From the NCBI GenBank assembly GCA_902566305.1, contig CACFIK010000005.1, positions 10,779 to 74,778 on the forward strand: DNA of 64,000 nucleotides, given 5' to 3'. Positions 7,437-59,251 of the stretch are shown here, one piece after another. Source of the DNA: an uncultured SAR86 cluster bacterium (lineage in GTDB: Bacteria; Pseudomonadota; Gammaproteobacteria; Magnimaribacterales; AG-339-G14). Below the pieces are notes generated by a model that did not search any database, was not told the DNA's origin, and saw only the letters and a program-made list of their open reading frames with translations. Position numbers and translations under genes: made by a program. Positions within the stretch are counted from its first letter, which is position 1. Every line of letters begins with the position of its first letter.

Positions 7437-8993
7437 ATGCAGAAAATTGATCAAGATAAGATAGTTATCCTTGATTTTGGTTCGCAATACACTCAGCTTA
7501 TTGCCAGAAGGATCAGAGAAATAGGAGTTTTATCCGAAATTGTCTCATGCGAAATATCCCCAAAAGAACTTTTAAAATTAAATCCAAGAGGCATTATTTT
7601 TTCTGGCGGTCCAGAATCGGTTAATTCGAAGTTTAAACCTAAATTTAATTCTAAGATTCTTGAAATAAACCGACCTATTTTAGGGATTTGCTACGGAATG
7701 CAATTATTAGCAAGCCAATATAAAGGAAAAGTAGATTTGTCGGCGAAGAGAGAATTCGGTCACTCAGAATTAGCATTTAACAAAAATATTCTTTTTAAAG
7801 GAGTAAAAGGGAAAAAAACAAAAATTGACGTATGGATGAGTCACGGCGATAAAGTTGTAAAGCTTCCGAAACAATTTAAAAGGATTGCCTCGTCGACAAA
7901 TTCTAAAATTGCCGCATTCGCTTCGAATGACAAACAACGCTTCGGTGTGCAATTTCACCCCGAGGTGTCTCACACCGATCAAGGGCAAAAAATATTAAGT
8001 AACTTCGCTTTGGATATTTGTGGTTGTAAGAAAAATTGGACTTCAAAAAATATTATTAATGATTTGGTTCAGAACATTAAAGATCAGGTTGGAAATAAAC
8101 ATGTTCTCTTAGGAATTTCGGGTGGTGTGGATTCCAGTGTTGTAGCCGCTCTCATTTCAAAAGCTATCGGTAAAAGATTGCATTGTATTTTTGTCGATAA
8201 CGGACTTTTAAGGAAAGATGAATCCATCCAAGTTAATCGTGATTTAAAAAAAGGTCTTGGCTTGAAGATTACTACTGTAAATGCCGAAGATATATTCCTG
8301 AAAAAACTTAAAGGCAGGACAGATCCTGAAGAAAAAAGGAAAATAATAGGCAGAACCTTCATAGATGTATTTTCAAAAGAGGCAAAAAAAATAAAAAATA
8401 TAGATTTTTTAGCTCAAGGAACTATCTATCCAGATTATATTGAATCAGCAGGAAAAAAGGGCGGTAAAGCGCATGTCATAAAATCGCATCATAACGTTGG
8501 AGGGTTACCTGAAAAATTAAAGTTTCCCCTTGTTGAACCGCTCAAATTTCTTTTTAAAGATGAGGTTAGAAAGATAGGAAGAAAATTAGGATTGCCAGCT
8601 TATCTTATCGAAAGGCATCCTTTTCCAGGTCCAGGGTTAGGCGTTCGATTGTTGGGTGCTATAGACAAAAGTAAGTTAGAGATATTAAGAGAAGCAGATG
8701 CCATTTTCATGGAAGAACTAATCAAGCAAAAGCTTTACAACAAAATAAGTCAAGCTTACGCAGCTTTTCTTCCAGTTAAATCAGTAGGTGTTGTTGGAGA
8801 TGCAAGAAGATATGAATACGTAATTGCCCTAAGAGCGGTTGTAACGCTTGATTTCATGACGGCTAATGTATTTCCTTTCAAACAAGAATTCCTTAATCAT
8901 GTTTCAACAAGAATAATGAATGAAATAGATAAGGTTTCTAGAGTTGTTTATGATATTTCGAGCAAACCTCCTGCAACTATTGAGTGGGAGTAA
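7437..8993 (+). CDS. guaA: GMP synthase (glutamine-hydrolysing)
   Basis: 518 aa. GATase Cys block GICYGMQLL, ATP-PPase P-loop SGGVDSS, family C-terminus PATIEWE. Confidence 0.95.
   Translation: MQKIDQDKIVILDFGSQYTQLIARRIREIGVLSEIVSCEISPKELLKLNPRGIIFSGGPESVNSKFKPKFNSKILEINRPILGICYGMQLLASQYKGKVDLSAKREFGHSELAFNKNILFKGVKGKKTKIDVWMSHGDKVVKLPKQFKRIASSTNSKIAAFASNDKQRFGVQFHPEVSHTDQGQKILSNFALDICGCKKNWTSKNIINDLVQNIKDQVGNKHVLLGISGGVDSSVVAALISKAIGKRLHCIFVDNGLLRKDESIQVNRDLKKGLGLKITTVNAEDIFLKKLKGRTDPEEKRKIIGRTFIDVFSKEAKKIKNIDFLAQGTIYPDYIESAGKKGGKAHVIKSHHNVGGLPEKLKFPLVEPLKFLFKDEVRKIGRKLGLPAYLIERHPFPGPGLGVRLLGAIDKSKLEILREADAIFMEELIKQKLYNKISQAYAAFLPVKSVGVVGDARRYEYVIALRAVVTLDFMTANVFPFKQEFLNHVSTRIMNEIDKVSRVVYDISSKPPATIEWE
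8979..8993 (+). repeat. Core copy A: ATTGAGTGGGAGTAA (guaA codons I-E-W-E-stop)
   Basis: Exact 15-mer is repeated at 9419-9433, and with 14/15 identity at 10420-10434. Confidence 0.9.
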
Positions 8994-9047
8994 TTTTTAA
9001 AATGAATATTAATTAAATCTTTGGATATTTTTTGCTAGGATGATGAG

Positions 9048-9353
9048 GTGATAAGTTTTTTTAAAAAATACAAAACTTATTTAGGTATATTTTTCTTTAT
9101 TTTTGCGGTAGTTCTTTCAAGAATAGGAAGACAACAAGATATTCCTGCACTTAACTTACCTTTGATTCTTTGTTTCACTATCATAGTTATCTCTTTTCTG
9201 TTTGCATTGATATTAATAATTTATGAAAAAGGATTTTTTAATTCAATAAGAACTCCTATATTCTGGATATACCTTATCTTAATTATTTTAGGATTTTATT
9301 TTATTGTGTTTCCGTTTTTTTCTTTAGGAATGAAATATTTAATTAATCTTTAA
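9048..9353 (+). CDS. Small hydrophobic protein (about 3 TM segments), unknown function
   Basis: 101-aa ORF with GTG start, the only sizeable ORF in cassette 1. No recognisable motifs. Confidence 0.4.
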   Translation: MISFFKKYKTYLGIFFFIFAVVLSRIGRQQDIPALNLPLILCFTIIVISFLFALILIIYEKGFFNSIRTPIFWIYLILIILGFYFIVFPFFSLGMKYLINL

Positions 9354-9354
9354 C

Positions 9355-9372
9355 ATACAAACTTCATACAAA
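9355..9372 (+). repeat. Tandem heptamers ATACAAA-CTTC-ATACAAA (site 1)
   Basis: 7-4-7 direct repeat with 11-bp phasing, starting 2 nt after the cassette-1 ORF stop. 46 nt separate it from core copy B. Confidence 0.85.
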
Positions 9373-9418
9373 GTCGAAATTAAAATCAATGGAATCAATA
9401 ATTTATAAACCTTTTACC

Positions 9419-9433
9419 ATTGAGTGGGAGTAA
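9419..9433 (+). repeat. Core copy B: ATTGAGTGGGAGTAA
   Basis: 15/15 identical to the guaA end. The in-frame context AAA CCT TTT ACC ATT GAG TGG GAG TAA (KPFTIEWE-stop) resembles guaA KPPATIEWE-stop. Confidence 0.9.
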
Positions 9434-9473
9434 AGAAATCGAACTTAACCAGAATTTTTGAATAGGAAGAGAA

Positions 9474-10331
9474 ATGACAAATGTAGAACACGTGGTTCTG
9501 AGTGACGGACGAAAACTGGCCTATGAGCAATTTGGCGCAGAGAATGGTGTGCCGGTTATCTACAACCACGGTTGGCCTTCATCCCGTTTAGAATGTCGCC
9601 ATTTAGTACCAATTGCTGAAAAAACTGGTGTTAAATTGATCTCAGTTGACCGGCCAGGGATGGGCGGGTCAGATTTCCAGCCGAATCGTGCCCTTCTGGA
9701 TTGGCCGAATGATATTTCTCAACTCGCTGATCACCTGTGCCTCGACAAATTTCATATCTTGGGTGTATCAGGTGGGGGTCCTTACGTATCAGTCTGCGCT
9801 TACAAGATTCCAGAGCGTTTGTTAGGCGCAGCGATAATTGCTGGTGTTACTCCGATGACTAACCCTCGCACAAAACACGGAATGAGGATGATGAACCGCA
9901 TTTTACTGAATGTGGGGAAACCGGCGCCCTGGTTGCTCAATTGGTTTATGAAATACATGCAAAATGTGGCCAACGACACTGAAAAGTTAAAGAGAGCGTT
10001 AAGTGATCTTCCAGAGGTAGACAAGCAGGTGATGACAGGAGATACAATCGATGAGTTAGCCGAGTCGGCGCAGGAATGTCTCCGACAAGGGACCGCAGGA
10101 GCGACGCAAGACGGTCGCATCTATGCCCTACCATGGGGGTTCGAGCTCAATCAAATCGACATACCCGTTACCGTCTGGCAAGGCTCGCTGGACGTCAATG
10201 TCCCGCTGTCCAACGGCCAGATCCTGGCAGAGTCCATTCCTAACGTATCTTCCAATTTTATAGATGGAGAAGGACATTTTTCTATACTGATTAACCATGG
10301 CGAAACGATGTTGACCGAGTTAATCGGTTGA
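9474..10331 (+). CDS. Alpha/beta-fold serine hydrolase, compositionally foreign
   Basis: 285 aa. HG oxyanion motif (YNHGWPSS), nucleophile elbow GVSGGG, C-terminal GEGHF. Hand counts: 30/60 and 38/60 G+C in lines 9481-9540 and 10081-10140, versus 12/60 in 9061-9120. Confidence 0.85.
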   Translation: MTNVEHVVLSDGRKLAYEQFGAENGVPVIYNHGWPSSRLECRHLVPIAEKTGVKLISVDRPGMGGSDFQPNRALLDWPNDISQLADHLCLDKFHILGVSGGGPYVSVCAYKIPERLLGAAIIAGVTPMTNPRTKHGMRMMNRILLNVGKPAPWLLNWFMKYMQNVANDTEKLKRALSDLPEVDKQVMTGDTIDELAESAQECLRQGTAGATQDGRIYALPWGFELNQIDIPVTVWQGSLDVNVPLSNGQILAESIPNVSSNFIDGEGHFSILINHGETMLTELIG

Positions 10332-10355
10332 CGCCACTATAATGACAAATATCAT

Positions 10356-10373
10356 ATACAAAGTTAATACAAA
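10356..10373 (+). repeat. Tandem heptamers ATACAAA-GTTA-ATACAAA (site 2)
   Basis: Same 7-4-7 layout as site 1. Again exactly 46 nt before the core (copy C). Confidence 0.85.
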
Positions 10374-10380
10374 CTTTTTT

Positions 10381-10405
10381 GAAACCCCTTTAAATAAAGG
10401 GTTTC
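10381..10405. other. Inverted repeat GAAACCC(C)TTTA-AA-TAAAGGGTTTC in the cassette-2 tail
   Basis: Imperfect 25-nt palindrome ending 14 nt before core copy C. The T-run precedes rather than follows it, so it does not look like an intrinsic terminator. Confidence 0.6.
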
Positions 10406-10419
10406 AGAGGGTATTACTC

Positions 10420-10434
10420 ATTGAGTGGGAATAA
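10420..10434 (+). repeat. Core copy C: ATTGAGTGGGAATAA
   Basis: 14/15 match to the guaA end. The single change GAG to GAA is synonymous, so it still reads I-E-W-E-stop. It is followed by AAC then the ATG of the next gene. Confidence 0.85.
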
Positions 10435-10437
10435 AAC

Positions 10438-12447
10438 ATGAAATATAGATCAGAAATTGATGGTCTAAGAGCGCTGGCAGTTTTGCCGGTAATTCTTTTT
10501 CATGCCGGCTTTGAGTGGTTTAGAGGTGGTTTTATAGGCGTGGACGTTTTCTTTGTGATTAGCGGCTATTTGATTACAACCATAATTATTTCTGAGATTG
10601 TTGAGGGTAAATTCAGTATTGTTAATTTTTATGAGCGTCGAGCCAGAAGAATACTACCCGCTTTATTTTTTGTCATGGCTATCTGCATACCCTTTGCTTG
10701 GCTGTGGCTTACACCAAATGACCTTAGAGATTTTGGACAGAGTCTTATTGCAGTATCCACATTTTCTTCCAATATTCTTTTTTGGTTAGAAAGTGGTTAT
10801 TTTGATACCGCTGCAGAACTAAAACCATTGCTTCATACTTGGAGTTTGGCTGTTGAGGAGCAGTTCTATATTCTTTTCCCTATTTTTCTAATCCTTACTT
10901 GGCGCTTGGGAGTTAAGTGGGTTTTAATTTTTCTATCATTACTATTTTTTATTAGTTTAGGAATCTCTTATTGGGGTTCTTACAACTCTCCTTCTGCTGC
11001 TTTCTTCCTACTTCCAACAAGAGGTTGGGAATTACTTGTTGGTGCTTTTGCTGCCTTTTACCTCAAGGCTAATAATCACCTGAATTCTCTTAATGTAAAT
11101 CAAACTTTTAGTTTGCTAGGTTTTGGAATGATTATTTATTCAATTATAGCGTTTGATAAAACTACTCCTTTTCCTGGCTTGTTTGCTTTAATCCCTACAT
11201 TTGGAACGGGTCTAATAATTCTTTGTGCTGTTCCAAAAACTTTTGTTCACAAACTACTAAGTCTAAAGATTATTGTTGGAATTGGATTGATTTCCTATAG
11301 CGCTTATTTGTGGCATCAGCCCTTATTGGCATTTGCGAGGCATAGATTTTTGGGTGATGTTTCAGAATTATTTTTAATTACCCTGTGTTTTATCTCATTC
11401 GCCATGGCATGGTTTAGTTGGAAATTTGTTGAGTCTCCTTTTCGAAAAAAATCAATATTCAAAAGAAAAAGTATCTTTGTTATGTCCGCGTTAATGGGTG
11501 TAATTTTTTCCGTATTAGGACTTTTTCTTCATATGAATGTTACTACCCCTTCTAAATTTGATTTCTATGGGAAAGAAATATCAATACCAGATAAGTATGG
11601 AGGAATTATTGATAACAAAAGGAAATGTTCTTTTCCTGACTTAATTTCTAAAGAAAAACCTTGCGAAATTTTTGGAGGCGGTGAATTAGGTGACTTAGTA
11701 ATCATTGGCGACTCACATGCCAGAGTCTTGTCTGAATCATTTTATTCTTCTGTCGGTTACTTTAATTCACTTATCGACTTAACAGCTTCAGGTTGTCCTT
11801 TTCTTATAGATTCAAATATTTACATTGGCAAAACTTTGAATTGCTCTAGCGACTACCAGCTTGCCAGACAAAAAATCTTGACAGAACGGCGCAATAGCAC
11901 TGTGGTTTATCAGGCCCGCTTACCATTGTATTTCTATGGTAATGGATTTGATAATGGCAATCCTGGCGGTAATGAGATAAGAGCAAAAGTAAGGGTTACT
12001 GGTAAAAAATCTTTTTCTAATGTTGAGGAAGAGCGTCGATATTTTCTCGAAAGTCTCAAAAATTCAGTGGGATTTATAGCAAAAAATAACAACATGCTTT
12101 TTATTATTTTGCCTTCTTTCAGCAATGGATGGGATCCAATAGATAGACTTTTCGCATTGGAAACACAAGGATTTTCGTTACAAGAAGCGAAGGATTACCT
12201 CGCTATTCAAAAGAAAGTTGTTGATCAACGAGTTGATCATTTAAGAGAAGAATTAATTTCGATATCTAAGAATTTTGATAATGTAATAATAGTTGACCCA
12301 AACAAATTTGTTTGCTCAATAGATTTTTGCTCCCCATTGAGTAGTGAGGATGAATTGCTTTTCACTGACGCAGATCATTTCTCTTTAAAAACTAACGATT
12401 TAATTTTCAATGAAGTACTTAAATCTATGGAATCTTTAAAAAGATAA
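10438..12447 (+). CDS. Acyltransferase-3 family membrane O-acyltransferase with C-terminal SGNH domain (OafA-like)
   Basis: 669 aa. N-terminal EIDGLRALAVLPVILFHAG block, about 10 TM segments, C-terminal SGNH block IIGDSHA. Confidence 0.85.
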   Translation: MKYRSEIDGLRALAVLPVILFHAGFEWFRGGFIGVDVFFVISGYLITTIIISEIVEGKFSIVNFYERRARRILPALFFVMAICIPFAWLWLTPNDLRDFGQSLIAVSTFSSNILFWLESGYFDTAAELKPLLHTWSLAVEEQFYILFPIFLILTWRLGVKWVLIFLSLLFFISLGISYWGSYNSPSAAFFLLPTRGWELLVGAFAAFYLKANNHLNSLNVNQTFSLLGFGMIIYSIIAFDKTTPFPGLFALIPTFGTGLIILCAVPKTFVHKLLSLKIIVGIGLISYSAYLWHQPLLAFARHRFLGDVSELFLITLCFISFAMAWFSWKFVESPFRKKSIFKRKSIFVMSALMGVIFSVLGLFLHMNVTTPSKFDFYGKEISIPDKYGGIIDNKRKCSFPDLISKEKPCEIFGGGELGDLVIIGDSHARVLSESFYSSVGYFNSLIDLTASGCPFLIDSNIYIGKTLNCSSDYQLARQKILTERRNSTVVYQARLPLYFYGNGFDNGNPGGNEIRAKVRVTGKKSFSNVEEERRYFLESLKNSVGFIAKNNNMLFIILPSFSNGWDPIDRLFALETQGFSLQEAKDYLAIQKKVVDQRVDHLREELISISKNFDNVIIVDPNKFVCSIDFCSPLSSEDELLFTDADHFSLKTNDLIFNEVLKSMESLKR

Positions 12448-12687
12448 GTTGTATTTAAAACGTTTGTGTAATTGATTCTTACTTTTGCAAACATTTTTTT
12501 TGATTTATTTCTTTTATTGTTTATTAGGCGGAGCAGTTTAAGCAATATAGATGAATATTTTTATTAATATTTATAATTTGTAAGTTTTTAGAAAATTGTT
12601 AAATCATAATTGATAAAATTATTGAAGAGACTGCATTAATAATAATCTAAAATAGACTGATTCTTTGTGTAAGGCAGGAAAATAACA

Positions 12688-13500
12688 GTGAAAAATTTTT
12701 ATCTAAAGCTTTGGAGAAGTAGATTTAATATCCCAAGACGTGCTTTTTGGAAAATTATTAGAATTTTAGTTTCAGAATTTAATTTGTACGGAATTTCAAG
12801 TGATTTCCAGAATAGTCAAATGAAAGAAATTGGGCTAATTCGCGAAGATGGCCTGGCTAAGTTGAATTATGTTTTAAAAGATGTGATGTCGAAACCATAC
12901 GATGAAAATGACGGAATGTTTTCTGAACATCTTGTTTTAATTTCATCAATTTCGGTATCTAATTTAAACATAAAGAGAGTTCTTGAGGTTGGAACACATG
13001 ATGGAAGAACTGCACTAATTCTAAGCCGATTATTCCCTGAGGCAGAAATTATTACTATCGACTTGCCGAGCGATGAAAAAAGCTTCGAAGAAACCTATAG
13101 TAGAGATAACTCAGTCAATGAGTTTACAAATAAAAGAAATAACCTAATTGCAAAAGCCGATAATATTGATTTTAAAGAAGTCAACTCTATTAGGCTATGT
13201 GAATGGGAGGAGAATTTCGATTTAATTTGGATTGATGGGGCGCATGGATATCCGGTTGTTGCTATGGATATTATCAATAGTTATAGGCTAGCAAATAAAG
13301 GAGCATTCATCCTTATTGATGATATTTGGAAGAGCGTAGATTTATCTGATGCTATGTATAAGTCTATTGGAGGAATTGAATCATTAAATATGCTTGTTAA
13401 TGCAAAACTTATTTCTAAATATTATCTTTTTCATAAGCGTCTCGGAGGTATTTTTAATTATCCTGGACAGAAGAAGTATGTTGGTTGTTTTATAAAATAA
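12688..13500 (+). CDS. Class I SAM-dependent methyltransferase
   Basis: 270 aa, GTG start. Motif I VLEVGTHDGRTAL, later IDGAH and DD blocks. Start position uncertain. Confidence 0.65.
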   Translation: MKNFYLKLWRSRFNIPRRAFWKIIRILVSEFNLYGISSDFQNSQMKEIGLIREDGLAKLNYVLKDVMSKPYDENDGMFSEHLVLISSISVSNLNIKRVLEVGTHDGRTALILSRLFPEAEIITIDLPSDEKSFEETYSRDNSVNEFTNKRNNLIAKADNIDFKEVNSIRLCEWEENFDLIWIDGAHGYPVVAMDIINSYRLANKGAFILIDDIWKSVDLSDAMYKSIGGIESLNMLVNAKLISKYYLFHKRLGGIFNYPGQKKYVGCFIK

Positions 13501-13531
13501 AAACTCAATTTAGCCCTATTAAAACTGGAAA

Positions 13532-14281
13532 GTGGAAGTAGATTTAATTTTATTTGTAGTTTTAATTTCAACTCTTTTTACAGCATTTTTATCTTCAATA
13601 TTTGGGATGCTCGGTGGTCTAATTTTAATGGGAATATTAATTAGTCTATTACCTGTTGGACCTGCTATGGTCCTTCATGGTCTTATTCAAGCAACATCAA
13701 ATGGATACAGGGCATGGATAAATAAAAAAGATATCAACTGGAAAATTATTTTAACCATCCTCATGGGAAGTATTTTTTCTTTGGTCATTTTTTATTTTAT
13801 TGCATTTGAGCCAAGTAAAATTTTAGTTCTATTTGCTTTAGGTTTTCTGCCATACCTAGCTTGGGCAGTACCAAAAGAACTTTCATTTGATATAAATAAA
13901 CCAACTACTGGAGTTTTGGCAGGAGGAGTAGTAGTGGGCAGTAATCTTTTATCTGGGACAGGTGGACCAATTTTGGATATTTTCTTTCAGAAGGTTGATA
14001 TGACAAGGCACGAGGTCGTGGCTACTAAGGCAGTAGCTCAAACATTAGGACATATCTCTAAAATACTTTTTTTTGGAATATTTGTTTCTGTAAATTTCGA
14101 AAACTGGCCAAATATTTACTTTCTTTTCATAGCAATTTTATTTTCAGTGACTGGAACTTCTTTAGGAAAGCGAGTTTTAGATATAATAGATGATAGATTT
14201 TTCTTCAGATGGACGCAGATCATTATTCTCTCTGTAGGAGCCATTTTTATTCTAAGAGCTTCATACTTATTAATTTTTTAA
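13532..14281 (+). CDS. TauE/SafE-family (sulfite exporter-like) membrane protein
   Basis: 249 aa, GTG start, about 7-8 TM segments with Gly-rich helices typical of the family. Confidence 0.6.
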   Translation: MEVDLILFVVLISTLFTAFLSSIFGMLGGLILMGILISLLPVGPAMVLHGLIQATSNGYRAWINKKDINWKIILTILMGSIFSLVIFYFIAFEPSKILVLFALGFLPYLAWAVPKELSFDINKPTTGVLAGGVVVGSNLLSGTGGPILDIFFQKVDMTRHEVVATKAVAQTLGHISKILFFGIFVSVNFENWPNIYFLFIAILFSVTGTSLGKRVLDIIDDRFFFRWTQIIILSVGAIFILRASYLLIF

Positions 14282-14335: not shown

Positions 14336-15412
14336 ATGAAAAATTTAAAAGATGAAATTAAGTTTCCATGCGGCCTATCTATGAAAAATAGATTTATGCT
14401 TGCTCCATTAACTAATACTCAGAGTCATGAAGATGGAGTTCTTTCAGATGATGAGTTTAATTGGTTAACTATGAGAGCGAGAGGTGGTTTTGGACTCACT
14501 ATGTCTTGTGCTTCGCATGTTCAGGCTATTGGTAAGGGTTTTCCCGGACAATTAGGAATTTTTAGCGATGAACATATAGATGGATTAAAAAAATTAACCG
14601 ATGAAATTAAATCTCACGAAAGTTTAGCCGTTGCTCAATTACACCATGCTGGAATGAGATCGCCTGAAGATATTATTAGAGAACAGCCTGTCTGTCCTTC
14701 AGATGATGAGGAGACTAACTCAAGAGCATTGACTCTTGATGAGGTCAAAAGATTAAGAGATAACTTTATTGAAGCTGGAGTAAGGGCAAAAAAGGCAGGT
14801 TATGAAGGGGCTGAAATTCACGGAGCTCACGGCTATATTTTGTGTCAATTTTTAAGTTCTGATATCAATAAGAGAGAAGACGAATATGGAGGAACTTTAG
14901 AAAACAGATCCAGAATCATTTTTGAGATAGTTGACGGCATTAGAAATGAATGCGGTTCTAAGTTTCTATTGGGAGTTAGATTATCTGCAGAAAGATTTGG
15001 AATCAAACTAGGAGAAACAAAAGAGGTTTGTAAAAAACTTATTGATACCGAAAAAATAGATTTTTTAGATATGTCACTTTGGGATTCCTTTAAAGAGCCG
15101 GTAGAGGAAGAGCACAAGGGTAAGAACCTATTGGAGCATTTTACAGAACTTGATTTTAAAGATGTTCAGTTAACGGTAGCGGGAAACATAAGGACTGGCG
15201 AGAACGTTCATGCAATACTTAATAATAAAGTAGATTTCGTAACTATTGGGAGAGCGGCTATTCTCCATCATGATTTTCCTATTAAAGTCATAGAAAACTC
15301 ATACTTTGAACCCATTGAGCTTCCAGCTCCTAGATCTCATTTAATTAAAGAGGGACTAAGCGATAAATTCATCGAATATATGGGAGCTTGGCCTGGTTTT
15401 GTGGGTGAATAA
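14336..15412 (+). CDS. NADH:flavin oxidoreductase (Old Yellow Enzyme family)
   Basis: 358 aa. APLTN block near the N-terminus and HGAHGYILCQFLS active-site block. Confidence 0.85.
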   Translation: MKNLKDEIKFPCGLSMKNRFMLAPLTNTQSHEDGVLSDDEFNWLTMRARGGFGLTMSCASHVQAIGKGFPGQLGIFSDEHIDGLKKLTDEIKSHESLAVAQLHHAGMRSPEDIIREQPVCPSDDEETNSRALTLDEVKRLRDNFIEAGVRAKKAGYEGAEIHGAHGYILCQFLSSDINKREDEYGGTLENRSRIIFEIVDGIRNECGSKFLLGVRLSAERFGIKLGETKEVCKKLIDTEKIDFLDMSLWDSFKEPVEEEHKGKNLLEHFTELDFKDVQLTVAGNIRTGENVHAILNNKVDFVTIGRAAILHHDFPIKVIENSYFEPIELPAPRSHLIKEGLSDKFIEYMGAWPGFVGE

Positions 15413-16193: not shown

Positions 16194-16211
16194 ATACAAA
16201 TTAGATACAAA
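16194..16211 (+). repeat. Tandem heptamers ATACAAA-TTAG-ATACAAA (site 3)
   Basis: Same 7-4-7 direct repeat as in the two guaA cassettes. It lies in the intergenic region 51 nt upstream of the apt ATG. Confidence 0.85.
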
Positions 16212-16262
16212 CTTTCTTTAGATGCTTTAATATCTCGTCCTAAGGAAATATAGGAGAAGGAA

Positions 16263-56159: not shown

Positions 56160-58646
56160 ATGAAGAATTTGGTAATAGTTGAATCTCAAGCAAAAGCTAA
56201 AAAAATACAAGGATTTCTTGAAAAAGAATTTCCTTCAGATTCTTGGACAGTTCATGCCTGCCTAGGTCATGTTAGAGATCTTAAAGACGACGAATCTGCT
56301 GTTGATCCTAAAGATTGGAACAATTTGAAGTGGGAATCAACTTCAAAAGGAAAAAAAACACTAAAGGAGATTAGAGATTTCTCAAAAGATTCAGATTGTA
56401 TATATCTTGCATCTGACCCAGACAGAGAAGGCGAGGCTATAGCTTGGCACATACTAGATCACCTTAAAGATAAAAAATTAATTGCAGGAAGGCAAATTCA
56501 TCGTATTTCATTTAATGAGATAACTCCGTCAGCAATAAAAATTGCAGTTGAAAATCCTAGAAACATAGATCAATTTCTTGTAGAAGCATATTTGGCAAGG
56601 AGGATATTAGATCACTTAATTGGATTTAAAGTTAGTCCTCTTTTATGGAGGCATGTTCCCAGAGCGAAATCCGCAGGAAGAGTCCAGTCTCCTACTTTGA
56701 GGATGATCTGTGCTAGAGAAGATGAAATTGATGCCTTTTCTCCGGAGGAGTTTTGGCCGCTTAAAGTCGATTTTAAAACTGAAGACTGTTCTTTTAGCTC
56801 AGACTTAATTAGATACAATGAAGAGGATTTAAAAAAAGCACCCATCAAGACTGAAGAAGAAGCTTTAAAACTTAAATTCGAGATAGAGAATACAAAATTT
56901 GCTATTGCAGAAATAAAAGATAGGGAAGTTTCATATTCTCCAAAGGCACCTTTCAGAACTTCAACCCTTCAACAGGCAGCATCTAGTAAGTTATTTTTTA
57001 ATCCAGAGAGAACAATGCAAGTTGCACAATCTTTGTACGAATCTGGCTTGATTACTTATATGAGGACTGATGGAATAGGAATTAGTACTGAGATTGTAGA
57101 AGAAATAAGAAGTTTAATATCTCAAGAGTTTGGTGAAAAATATCTTCCTGAGAGCCCAAAAATTTATAAATCAAAGGCTGCAAATGCTCAAGAAGCTCAC
57201 GAACCAATAAGACCAACCGATATAAGAAATAAACCTGAAAATACAAATGGATTAAATCAGGATCAACTGAATCTTTATTCCCTTATTTGGCAAAGAACAG
57301 TAGCCAGTCAATTAAAAAACTCAAGATATCTTAGAAAAACTATTTTGATTGAGGATAAAGATAAGAAGTTTCATCTTAGGACAAGCGGAAGAGAACTTAT
57401 TTTTGATGGATTTGAGAGAGTTCTCAAAGATGATTTGGATTCTGAAGAATCTCAAAAATTAAAAGGCATTCATGATGATTCTCACCTAGATATATCTGAT
57501 GTCATCACTGAACAAAAATTTACTTCCCCTCCAAGAAGATTTTCAGAAGCATCTTTAATTAAAAGTATGGAGGATGAAGGTATAGGAAGACCCTCAACTT
57601 ATGCAAATACGGTAAAAAATCTTAGAGATAGAAAATATACATTTGGAGCAAAAAGCATTAATCCTTCTGATTTAGGAAGGATCTTGGTGTCATACTTATC
57701 AAAAGCATATGAGTCTTTTTTTATAGAAATAGACTTTACTGCAGAATTGGAAAAAAGTTTGGATCAAGTATCTTCAGGCTCAATTCCTTGGACGGATATC
57801 CTAGATGATTTTTTTGCCAAACTTTTGGAACACATATCTAGAATTGAAGAATTTAGGACTAGAGAAGTTTTGGATATGCTGAATGAGCAAATTGGGCATA
57901 GAGCTTTTCCAAAAAATGTTAAAGGTGAGGTTAAAGATAATTGTCCTAAATGTTCTAATGAAATAAGTATTAAACATGGCAGATGGGGGTTTTTTGTTGG
58001 ATGTGGAGAATGTCAATGGACAAAGCCAGTATTTGAAAAATCGATCGAATTCGAGACATATGCTCAACTTCCAAAAGAACTTGGTTCTCACCCTGATACG
58101 CAGAAGCCCGTTTATGCTGATATAAGTATAAATGGTCCTTGCATATGGACATTGAAGGAGGATAAGAAGATTTTTGGAACCCCTGATGAAGATGAAGATA
58201 TTCTAACTATCGGACTTAATAGAGCGCTAGAGCTGATTGAAAGATCTAATAGAGAAAATATTTTGTTTATTGAGACGAATAGCGGTATTCCAGTAACTTT
58301 GAAAAATGGTAGATTTGGAGAGTACACAGAATTTAATGGTTTTAATAAGGCCACTAAACTCAAGGGAAGAGTAACTTACGACCCTGATGCTTTCAATTAT
58401 CAGGATGAAGGTGATCGAATTAAGGTTTTAAAGTCTCTTCGAATTTTGGGTTTTGAAGAAGAATCTAAGACTCCAATTGGAATAAAAATTAAAAAATTGG
58501 GAAAAGCATTTAAATTTAAAAAAGTCTTCAAATTTGGAGAAGATGAATTTGAATGTCCTGATAACTTTTATAAGCTTGATGAGGATGAACAAAGAGAGTT
58601 AGTATTAGAAGCTATTAAGCCAAAGAAAATATTTTTTCTTGAATAG
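56160..58646 (+). CDS. topA: DNA topoisomerase I
   Basis: 828 aa. TOPRIM (LVIVESQAKAKKI, ASDPDREGEAI), active-site Tyr block GLITYMRTD, C-terminal Cys4 zinc ribbon CPKC...CGEC. Confidence 0.95.
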   Translation: MKNLVIVESQAKAKKIQGFLEKEFPSDSWTVHACLGHVRDLKDDESAVDPKDWNNLKWESTSKGKKTLKEIRDFSKDSDCIYLASDPDREGEAIAWHILDHLKDKKLIAGRQIHRISFNEITPSAIKIAVENPRNIDQFLVEAYLARRILDHLIGFKVSPLLWRHVPRAKSAGRVQSPTLRMICAREDEIDAFSPEEFWPLKVDFKTEDCSFSSDLIRYNEEDLKKAPIKTEEEALKLKFEIENTKFAIAEIKDREVSYSPKAPFRTSTLQQAASSKLFFNPERTMQVAQSLYESGLITYMRTDGIGISTEIVEEIRSLISQEFGEKYLPESPKIYKSKAANAQEAHEPIRPTDIRNKPENTNGLNQDQLNLYSLIWQRTVASQLKNSRYLRKTILIEDKDKKFHLRTSGRELIFDGFERVLKDDLDSEESQKLKGIHDDSHLDISDVITEQKFTSPPRRFSEASLIKSMEDEGIGRPSTYANTVKNLRDRKYTFGAKSINPSDLGRILVSYLSKAYESFFIEIDFTAELEKSLDQVSSGSIPWTDILDDFFAKLLEHISRIEEFRTREVLDMLNEQIGHRAFPKNVKGEVKDNCPKCSNEISIKHGRWGFFVGCGECQWTKPVFEKSIEFETYAQLPKELGSHPDTQKPVYADISINGPCIWTLKEDKKIFGTPDEDEDILTIGLNRALELIERSNRENILFIETNSGIPVTLKNGRFGEYTEFNGFNKATKLKGRVTYDPDAFNYQDEGDRIKVLKSLRILGFEEESKTPIGIKIKKLGKAFKFKKVFKFGEDEFECPDNFYKLDEDEQRELVLEAIKPKKIFFLE

Positions 58647-58648
58647 AG

Positions 58649-59251
58649 CTAATTATAATTTCTCAGAACACCTAGACACTTTCCTTCAATGTCAAAACTC
58701 TCAATTGAAGGATTAATTTCAATATCTTTATAGTTTTTATTTTCAGGCCTTAAAATAACTTTAGTTTTATCTAAGTGAAAGAGAGTCTTAACTGTTACAT
58801 CATCATTTATCCTAGCAACAACAATATCTCCAGGTTTAACGTCTTTCCTTTTATTTATTGCAATAAGATCACCTTCAACAATTCCAACTTCATTCATGCT
58901 ATCGCCTTTAACTCTCAAGAAATAGTCAACTGAATCAGAAAAAATATTACCATTAAATTCAATTCTTTCTTCAACGTTTTCAACTGCTAATAAAGGAGAA
59001 CCTGCCGCAACAGAGCCGACTATGGGAATACCTAGAAAAGATTTATTTATTGATATCCCACGGGAAGTACCACCTTGAAGACTAATATAACCCTTTTTAT
59101 CAAGAGCTTTTAGATGCTCTTCAGCAGAATTGGCTGATTTGAAGCCAAATTTTAAAGCTATTTCTTTTCTTGTTGGAGGCATACCTTCATTGGAAATTAC
59201 ATCTGAGATAAAGGTTAAAATTTCAGATTGTCTCGTTGTTAGGTTCTTCAT
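58649..59251 (-). CDS. lexA: LexA repressor
   Basis: 200 aa. wHTH N-domain (GMPPTRKEIA), Ala-Gly cleavage site (VAAGSP), Ser/Lys dyad blocks GDSM and VTVKT. Confidence 0.95.
   Translation of the reverse strand: MKNLTTRQSEILTFISDVISNEGMPPTRKEIALKFGFKSANSAEEHLKALDKKGYISLQGGTSRGISINKSFLGIPIVGSVAAGSPLLAVENVEERIEFNGNIFSDSVDYFLRVKGDSMNEVGIVEGDLIAINKRKDVKPGDIVVARINDDVTVKTLFHLDKTKVILRPENKNYKDIEINPSIESFDIEGKCLGVLRNYN

Follow-up and report, generated by a model that had tools for sequence, protein, structure and literature searches.

The 3' end of guaA, the gene for GMP synthase, carries small gene cassettes in an uncultured SAR86 cluster bacterium, in which two single-gene units are stacked behind guaA and each is closed by a copy of the last guaA codons. 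SAR86 is among the most abundant bacterial groups of the surface ocean and has a very small genome with few recognisable mobile elements. We analysed 64,000 nucleotides (nt) of this genome (assembly GCA_902566305.1, contig CACFIK010000005.1, positions 10,779 to 74,778; hereafter the window) alongside a sample of 51 SAR86-type guaA loci from single-cell genomes, metagenome-assembled genomes and metagenome contigs, which covers the window lineage and lineages with GuaA ~68% identical. The comparison revealed that the guaA stop is a precise, reused insertion site and that one-gene cassettes have recently spread across lineages whose guaA genes are 67% identical. These data are best explained by trans-acting site-specific recombination, probably by a tyrosine integrase, which we consider to build the arrays with a probability of roughly 0.7. 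The very small SAR86 genome would thereby have an integron-like site for swapping genes. Loci and contigs are cited below by our own numbers beginning with L, and protein clusters by numbers beginning with P.

Repeated guaA termini and the cassettes of the window

The last 15 nt of guaA, ATTGAGTGGGAGTAA, comprise the five codons I-E-W-E-stop (8979-8993) and recur exactly at 9419-9433, and a third copy, ATTGAGTGGGAATAA, lies at 10420-10434 with a single synonymous change from GAG to GAA. A preliminary description of the window, made from its letters alone, had reported these three copies, and they were found where it had placed them. With up to one mismatch allowed, the window holds three matches, all on the plus strand, against 0.01 expected from dinucleotide-preserving shuffles, and no further core was found in the 64 kb. 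The core-to-core spacing is 440 nt and then 1001 nt. Each unit delimited in this way holds one open reading frame (ORF), which encodes a hydrophobic peptide of 101 aa in the first and a GC-rich Abhydrolase_1 protein in the second, in agreement with the preliminary description. The features of the array are as follows.

7437-8993, plus strand: guaA (GMP synthase, 518 aa), an ORF whose product is 93-99% identical to SAR86 GuaA; homologues carry the Pfam domains GATase and GMP_synt_C
8979-8993, plus strand: core copy A, ATTGAGTGGGAGTAA, a motif match that forms the left junction of the array; the putative crossover, GAGTGGGA(AT), is deduced from junction polymorphisms
8994-9433, plus strand: cassette 1, a 440-nt unit with 23% GC and an orphan 101-aa hydrophobic ORF (9048-9353)
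9354-9433, plus strand: 3' module of cassette 1, with phased direct repeats TACAAACTTCATACAAAGT (9356-9374), a weak AAATTA/TAATTT inverted repeat and core copy B (9419-9433)
9434-10434, plus strand: cassette 2, a 1001-nt unit with an alpha/beta hydrolase ORF (9474-10331; 49% GC, foreign composition)
10332-10434, plus strand: 3' module of cassette 2 (class a), with an AATGA box, phased repeats TACAAAGTTAATACAAACT (10357-10375), the hairpin GAAACCCC...GGGTTTC (10381-10405), a 14-nt spacer and core copy C (10420-10434, the GAA variant)

About three hydrophobic segments were recognised in the product of cassette 1, which stands as a singleton among 5.8 billion protein clusters; the mobility of this cassette is therefore deduced from its ends only. 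An exact-sequence look-up returned no record for the GuaA and GuaB of the window, for the 101-aa membrane peptide or for its homologue P0046. The 285-aa product of cassette 2 matches Abhydrolase_1 (E 4e-18), and its ORF differs in composition from the window as a whole, which has 35% GC. No Rfam family was found in 8800-10600.

The base directly before copies B and C is C and guaA has T there, as had been noted. The preliminary description had also read a longer, decayed guaA tail (KPFTIEWE) into copy B; this holds in part, in that identity with guaA reaches the ACY upstream of the 15-mer, but the further match to AAACCT is indistinguishable from chance. In another cassette class, identity with guaA extends to TGCAACT upstream of the 15-mer, 22 nt in total. 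The last 15 nt of guaA form the putative chromosomal attachment site.

Cassette exchange behind guaA in SAR86

The GuaA of the window is 93-99% identical to those of SAR86 single-cell and metagenome-assembled genomes. Gene order 5' of guaA is constant (pterin dehydratase, MFS transporter, guaB, guaA), and in the window lineage the conserved genes on the far side encode an old-yellow-enzyme oxidoreductase and an enoyl-CoA hydratase (ECH). Between these syntenic flanks, the interval from guaA to the next conserved gene differs in almost every genome among the 51 loci. Two to five cores follow guaA in 30 of the 51, all on the guaA strand, and arrays were seen in four lineages, namely that of the window and the GuaA clusters P0018, P0004 and P0016. 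Every copy of the core in these loci lies downstream of guaA, so the core is not a dispersed repeat, and the arrangement is not fixed across relatives; a dispersed repeat or a fixed arrangement would have spoken against the insertion model of the preliminary description. Because a reiterated guaA tail within 10 kb was found in only one of ~66 guaA loci of other taxa, the arrays are a SAR86 feature in this sample. That one locus (L086, on a 699-kb contig of an unrelated bacterium) has a second guaA-tail copy, ATTGAGTGGGAGTGA, 780 nt past the guaA stop (11546 and 12325), which may mark another small unit at guaA outside SAR86.

The hydrolase cassette illustrates the mobility of these units. In the public collection, 149 blocks encode its protein without a single residue changed. 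The cassette is the first after guaA in L008, L014 and L019, the second in the window, the third in L001, L003 and L005, and the fourth in L002. Regardless of its neighbours, its left end always reads ...GGGAGTAA joined to AGAAATCGAAC and its right end stops after ...CTCATTGAGTGGGA (GGGTATTACTCATTGAGTGGGA), and at least four different sequences follow it on the 3' side (a DUF305 gene, a TPR gene, the acyltransferase gene of the window and a DUF2817 cassette). Its copies are 99.2-100% identical in nucleotide sequence between loci whose guaA genes are ~95% identical. Moreover, a GNAT cassette of L153 is ~99.4% identical to those of L004 and L007, even though the guaA genes of L153 and the window are only 67% identical in nucleotides. 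Such near-identical cassettes behind diverged guaA genes exclude simple vertical inheritance with differential loss and reveal transfer between deep lineages.

The preliminary description had proposed repeated site-specific insertion at the guaA stop. Indeed, units are present in some relatives and absent from others with breakpoints at the 15-mer, and empty sites exist. In L013 the DUF305 gene directly follows guaA, and in L014 the hydrolase cassette lies in between. Another pair, L154 and L151 of a second lineage, has identical GuaA proteins and differs by an amine-oxidase cassette. The empty site of L154, ACTATAGAGTGGGAATAAaatgat, reads ACT-ATA-GAGTGGGA-ATAA-aatgat. The occupied site of L151 starts with ATAGAGTGGGAATGAaag and ends with ATGGAGTGGGAATAAaatgat, and reads ATA-GAGTGGGA-ATGA-aag up to the amine-oxidase gene and aact-ATG-GAGTGGGA-ATAA-aatgat behind it. 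The third core base (ATA or ATG) thus stays with the upstream partner, and since the flanking polymorphic bases keep their own partners, exchange took place within GAGTGGGAAT. The crossover was narrowed towards GGGA by identity that stops after GGGA (L008-L010, L019) or starts at GGGAGTAA (L009, L010). Breakpoints are confined to ~8-10 nt, and the aligned junctions show a crossover segment of GAGTGGGA(AT), 3' of core position 3. The new guaA stop codon comes from the incoming cassette, and the ATG of the cargo overlaps it (ATGA) in L151 and L200.

Each cassette ends in a non-coding module of ~80-160 nt, which falls into several sequence classes with one common architecture. Two direct copies of TACAAA(G/C)T (TACAAAST), or of TGTAAA(C/G) in one class, lie at 11-nt spacing ~47-57 nt before GAGTGGGA. 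They are followed by a GAAAC...GTTTC inverted repeat, a spacer of 10-22 nt and the core, which often has ACT or TGCAACT directly 5', as in guaA. The correct patterns for the modules are TTTCAGAGN{10}ATTGAGTGGGA and TACAAASTNNNTACAAASTN{38,66}GAGTGGGA, and the correct spacing from TTTCAGAG to the core is 10 N; a scan of metagenome contigs with 12 N between TTTCAGAG and the core gave seven chance matches (L142-L148). Class a modules fold better than shuffles (whole module, z -3.4 to -3.7; hairpin part, z -2.2), as do class c modules (z -4.2), and the module of copy B (z +1.2) and those of classes d, e and HAD fold no better than shuffles. RNAalifold yielded no consensus fold across modules. Paired changes are seen in the arms between classes, GAAACCC/GGGTTTC against TAAAACC/GGTTTTA, but with about seven independent module classes this is suggestive only.

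The cargo comprises hydrolases, an amidohydrolase fused to a peptidyl-prolyl isomerase, a GNAT acetyltransferase, flavodoxin-like, DUF2817, GFA, HAD and GST proteins, an amine oxidase and several orphans. One cassette of L017 (11558-17563) consists of a full type I restriction-modification system (hsdR, hsdS, hsdM) as a three-gene unit between two cores, and two HNH endonuclease cassettes were found in L002 and L015. Defence genes thus belong to the cargo, which is typical of islands. In the same interval, L170 carries a HinfI-type restriction gene and a Dam-like methylase.

Most cassettes are single-ORF units in guaA orientation and have no obvious promoters; the three-gene unit of L017 and minus-strand genes in L200 and L206 are exceptions. 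Several cargo ORFs start 0-10 nt past the core or overlap the guaA stop. In the region 8800-10600, neither an excess of promoter-like sites nor a terminator-like site between guaA and the cassettes was found. The core sequence GGGAG resembles a ribosome-binding site and could serve as one, and transcripts that run on from guaBA, with translational coupling, probably account for expression of the cassettes.

Proposed recombination in trans and the alternatives

We propose that both units of the window are non-autonomous integrative cassettes, each made up of cargo, usually one gene, and a 3' module with a copy of the guaA stop region at its end. An excised cassette circle would carry one recombination site, and a recombinase, most likely of the tyrosine integrase type and specific for the guaA terminus, would join it with the core of guaA or with any core of an array by strand exchange within GAGTGGGA(AT). 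Integration would restore the I-E-W-E end of GuaA, with the cassette bringing a new stop and leaving a second core behind it, and repeated events would stack cassettes head to tail. The phased repeats may act as arm-type or accessory-protein sites in this process, with a presumed role for the inverted repeat as well. Since no such enzyme is encoded at the locus, it would have to act in trans, either encoded at another genomic locus or brought in by a transient element, for example a phage or an island.

The preliminary description had found no recombinase in the 64 kb, and profile and homology searches of the window and of all fetched SAR86 loci came to the same result. Pfam searches of all window ORFs of at least 90 aa detected no integrase, transposase, resolvase or excisionase, and no Phage_integrase domain. 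With E. coli XerD as phmmer query there was no match at E <= 10 in the window or in 31 SAR86 loci, and positive controls elsewhere were recovered; the Int and AlpA proteins of GIsul2 (from pAB3) likewise matched nothing in the window or the SAR86 loci at E <= 10. A phage integrase query in a local search gave no match in the window or the fetched SAR86 loci, and it too recovered positive controls elsewhere. In other loci, namely L137, L183 and L191, the GIsul2 Int query matched integrases of the GIsul2 family whose genes immediately follow the guaA stop (E 1e-136 to 1e-163). Scans of viral contigs used four patterns, namely the 15-mer, the module in its correct spacing, the composite architecture and an extended core. 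They returned junctions of enterobacterial-type prophages, the guaA ends of other taxa, the attP of a Firmicutes-like phage with its integrase, and chance matches (for example L149). Among them were ~25 enterobacterial-type prophages of IMG/VR whose junction is exactly the 15-mer. The Firmicutes-like phage (L119), which is low in GC, has a 110-nt guaA 3' fragment adjoining its integrase. Judging from these junctions, the guaA stop region is a well-used attachment site. The ORFs beside 21-nt guaA-tail matches in two large viral contigs, L104 and L112, were also considered and are not integrases.

The closest precedent is GIsul2, which integrates at the guaA 3' end at 5'-GAGTGGGA-3' and has GGGA as a secondary site (PMC9376610, citing Harmer 2017 and Shi 2019). 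In recA-minus E. coli, its tyrosine integrase, with the help of AlpA, excises and integrates the CR2-sul2 unit, which has no integrase and lies between such sites, and in Aeromonas two tandem CR2-sul2 units recreated perfect cores (PMC9376610). Such mobilisation of integrase-less units makes the missing integrase of the SAR86 arrays less mysterious. The arrays share with GIsul2 the guaA 3' site, the GAGTGGGA core, regeneration of the gene end and integrase-less units bounded by cores. Because the crossover segment derived from SAR86 is the published GIsul2 motif, the simplest reading would be that non-autonomous units are moved in trans by a guaA-specific tyrosine integrase, and the structure of the units and the pattern of their spread fit in-trans mobilisation as with CR2-sul2. 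In contrast to SAR86, GIsul2 is a 15-kb island with its own int and alpA, neither of which lies at or near the SAR86 arrays. The latter are made up mostly of single genes with a conserved module of ~100 nt, have up to five cores and reside in a streamlined, free-living marine host, and their module is unrelated to the TGACGGTAT-type repeats beside GIsul2-family integrases. At the attLR of GIsul2 in pAB3 (L199, 42859-42894), the flank ACTAAAGGGTTTTGTGTGCTTGTTTACAATC adjoins GAGTGGGA and AAAGGGTTT stands 19 nt before the core, and in SAR86 class a modules AAAGGGTTT stands 18 nt before GAGTGGGA; this likeness is a single case and may be due to chance. The site, and probably the chemistry, is conventional, and what appears to be new is the miniaturisation to one-gene cassettes with a dedicated module, which form integron-like arrays in an ocean bacterium with a streamlined genome, at a locus that encodes no recombinase.

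Several observations weigh against recombination by an enzyme acting in trans. The window and ~0.8 Mb of SAR86 loci yielded no recombinase, whatever the class, which leaves the enzyme and its class unproven. Neither a circular form nor a helper element was seen, and the SAR86 module was absent from IMG/VR contigs in the pattern scans. Cassette 1, with no second instance found, is known from this genome alone. Because the genes distal to the array vary although they have no cores, the interval is shaped by a second process as well. In two more SAR86-like lineages (GuaA clusters P0012 and P0020), divergence begins exactly after ATTGAGTGGGAAT and the available sequence holds no second core. Finally, phased repeats also occur outside modules, and their function may be to bind a transcription factor and not to take part in recombination.

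Among the alternatives, one is less likely than the main reading but plausible, namely that the arrays are an independently evolved, integron-like SAR86 platform run by a recombinase other than a GIsul2-type island integrase, either a domesticated host enzyme or a new family, in which the guaA stop is the fixed site, the modules are the mobile partner, and expression and translation are coupled to guaBA. If this were true, the platform would be a main route by which genes are exchanged throughout the SAR86 clade. A true integron, with the modules as attC hairpins, IntI encoded elsewhere, the guaA stop as attI and the array as a cluster of attC sites lacking an integron integrase (CALIN), is quite unlikely. 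The co-oriented single-ORF cassettes without obvious promoters, the 3' site of ~80-160 nt, the significant folding of class a and c modules and a core, ATTGAGT, that fits GTTRRRY at six of seven positions would all suit it. However, none of the 24 distinct module ends carries the RYYYAAC...GTTRRRY pair, the boundary being ATTGAGT, and the crossover lies 3' of core position 3 and not between G and TT. RNAalifold gave no fold common to the modules, no intI was found, and phased direct repeats are not an attC feature. The modules were accordingly rejected as attC sites on the fold tests and the absent R''/R' boxes, which matches the preliminary view of a logic like that of integrons at a site that is neither attI nor attC.

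It is unlikely that the arrays arise without any dedicated recombinase, through DNA uptake and homologous or homology-facilitated illegitimate recombination anchored in guaA or the modules, with the core as shared microhomology. Modules of the same class are near-identical over ~90 nt, which is enough for RecA exchange, and the hybrid module of L006, the deletion derivative L018 and the distal genes that vary without cores are what such exchange could produce. This would, however, give no reason for the copy of the guaA stop region at the end of every cassette. Only 15-22 nt are common to the guaA end and the cassette site, breakpoints are fixed within ~8-10 nt, and the same cassettes stand behind guaA genes only 67% identical, which offer no usable anchor, so guaA-anchored homologous recombination is implausible as a general mechanism. 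The host enzymes XerC and XerD, as proposed for the pdif modules of Acinetobacter plasmids and for dif-integrating elements, would account for the absence of a dedicated recombinase at the locus. The Xer sites cer and psi have accessory sequences on one side of the core, as the modules do. We nevertheless regard this as very unlikely, because the core region does not resemble the 11-6-11 dif consensus, which has TTATGTTAAAT as its XerD arm, every core points the same way, in contrast to the alternating pdif sites, the site is guaA and not dif, and a dedicated family of integrases acts on the same GAGTGGGA core elsewhere. A dif-like reading of the core was thus rejected, with no dif-like site visible and all cores on one strand. 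It is extremely improbable that the arrays are relics of an old array or island inherited vertically, which differ by deletion between cores and are no longer mobile. Decay does occur, as in the truncated cassette of L018, the 10-nt scar of L163 and the fused two-gene cassette of L004, L006 and L007. Against this stand cassettes 99-100% identical across hosts whose guaA genes differ by 5% to 33%, the same cassette at different ranks and before three different distal genes (DUF305, TPR and AT3), and the foreign composition of the cargo.

Compared with other systems, the arrays resemble integrons and CALIN in their ordered, small, co-oriented one-ORF cassettes with a 3' recombination site, in their fixed chromosomal site and in plausible expression from outside (definitions in PMC4889954). 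The modules are near-identical within a host group, as are the repeats of sedentary chromosomal integrons. In contrast, the SAR86 arrays have no intI, no R''/R' boxes (0/24), another crossover and no consensus hairpin across modules, and their site is the stop region of a housekeeping gene that is partly rebuilt with each insertion. By the absent boxes and the different crossover, the array falls outside the integron family, although it works like an integron. In staphylococci, the staphylococcal cassette chromosome (SCC) and pseudo-SCC elements are inserted in tandem at the 3' end of rlmH (orfX), with direct repeats that include the last codons of the gene, and some have no recombinase genes and rely on other elements. 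SCC elements are 5-60 kb long, depend on large serine recombinases (Ccr) and have no conserved cassette-borne module. They follow the same idea at a housekeeping terminus, but with a different target gene and different enzymes.

Tycheposons and additive flexible islands are similar in their streamlined planktonic hosts, in the stacking of cargo between copies of a target-gene 3' end and in the many units that have no recombinase (10.1101/2020.12.28.424599; PMC10872708). They differ in their tRNA or tmRNA sites, in the tyrosine recombinase carried by elements and in units that generally hold several genes. The window has no tRNA gene, and its repeats are the guaA terminus and not a tRNA or tmRNA site. 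Neither guaA nor SAR86 is mentioned in the papers on tycheposons and flexible islands (10.1101/2020.12.28.424599; PMC10872708). Neither the paper on the SAR86 isolate nor the one on the original SAR86 genome speaks of an integrase or a guaA island, and the genome paper notes at least one unassembled hypervariable region. Literature searches on SAR86, guaA integration and related cassette and island systems found no description of guaA arrays in SAR86, and only the GIsul2 work bears on the mechanism.

The GAGTGGGA site at guaA, known from clinical resistance islands, would thus support an integron-like lifestyle in the open ocean. The core and module sequences provide a handle for mining the cassette pool of metagenomes, for finding circular intermediates in vesicle and viral fractions and for tracing the recombinase. 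Annotators should treat everything between guaA and the first conserved gene beyond it as a cassette array, which is a likely cause of contig breaks in SAR86 assemblies.

Irregular cassettes and neighbouring features

Some loci carry modified cassettes. At position 3150 of L006, the 5' part of a class a module is joined to the 3' part of a class b module, forming a hybrid. In L004 (2561-2570), L006 and L007, the 3' flank of the hydrolase leaves its usual module exactly after CGCCACTA and continues into the GNAT gene, which by its arrangement appears to be a fused two-gene cassette ending in the GNAT module. In L018 (14772-15187), the last 360 nt of the hydrolase cassette are fused to the end of an amidohydrolase cassette and the core is mutated (ATTTAGTGGGAGTAA); this truncated cassette is best read as decay by deletion. 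L163 reads ATGAgaagttacaAAGTTAAAA at 11558-11570 and L162, whose GuaA protein is identical, reads ATAAAGTTAAAA; the 10-nt insert contains the repeat motif GTTACAAAG and looks like the scar of a lost cassette. In L206 (14055-14129), a 29-nt fragment resembling the T-arm and acceptor of a tRNA (ggtcggaggttcgagtccccccgagccca) is fused to the 3' half of a class a module just before the core. No tRNA gene was called there, the adjoining half-module has no phased repeats, and the fragment is not the repeat unit; it looks like the remnant of a tRNA-targeting element captured in the guaA array.

SAR86 metagenome contigs L165-L169, L171-L174 and L205 stop ~20-150 nt past the guaA stop. Contig ends at this point are likely where population-level variation breaks short-read assemblies.

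The features of the window beyond the array are listed below.

10438-14281, plus strand: distal variable genes (Pfam), encoding an AT3-SGNH acyltransferase (10438-12447), a methyltransferase (12688-13500) and a TauE-like exporter (13532-14281)
14336-15412, plus strand: old-yellow-enzyme-type oxidoreductase gene, the first conserved gene past the hypervariable interval in the window lineage
16195-16213, plus strand: third phased double repeat, TACAAATTAGATACAAACT, outside the array and ~50 nt upstream of the apt start codon

The ATG of the acyltransferase gene follows the end of core copy C by 4 nt. The three distal genes vary among SAR86 loci and have no module or core at their 3' ends. The TACAAATTAGATACAAACT repeat, with a chance expectation of 0.01 in the window, lies in the ECH/apt intergenic region and occupies the same place in L014, L015 and L016. 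A phased repeat is also present in the 5' leader of a cassette for a 296-aa hydrolase (L001, 4625-4643; also L002, L003, L004, L005, L017, L018 and L206), where a promoter-like TTGACA directly follows and then a further TACAAACTT copy. This leader repeat may be a promoter with its operator or a module relic from a fused cassette. More generally, the phased repeat may be the site of a host DNA-binding protein with a role in transcription, recombination or both. At the far end of the window, topA (56160-58646) and lexA (58649-59251, minus strand) adjoin each other.

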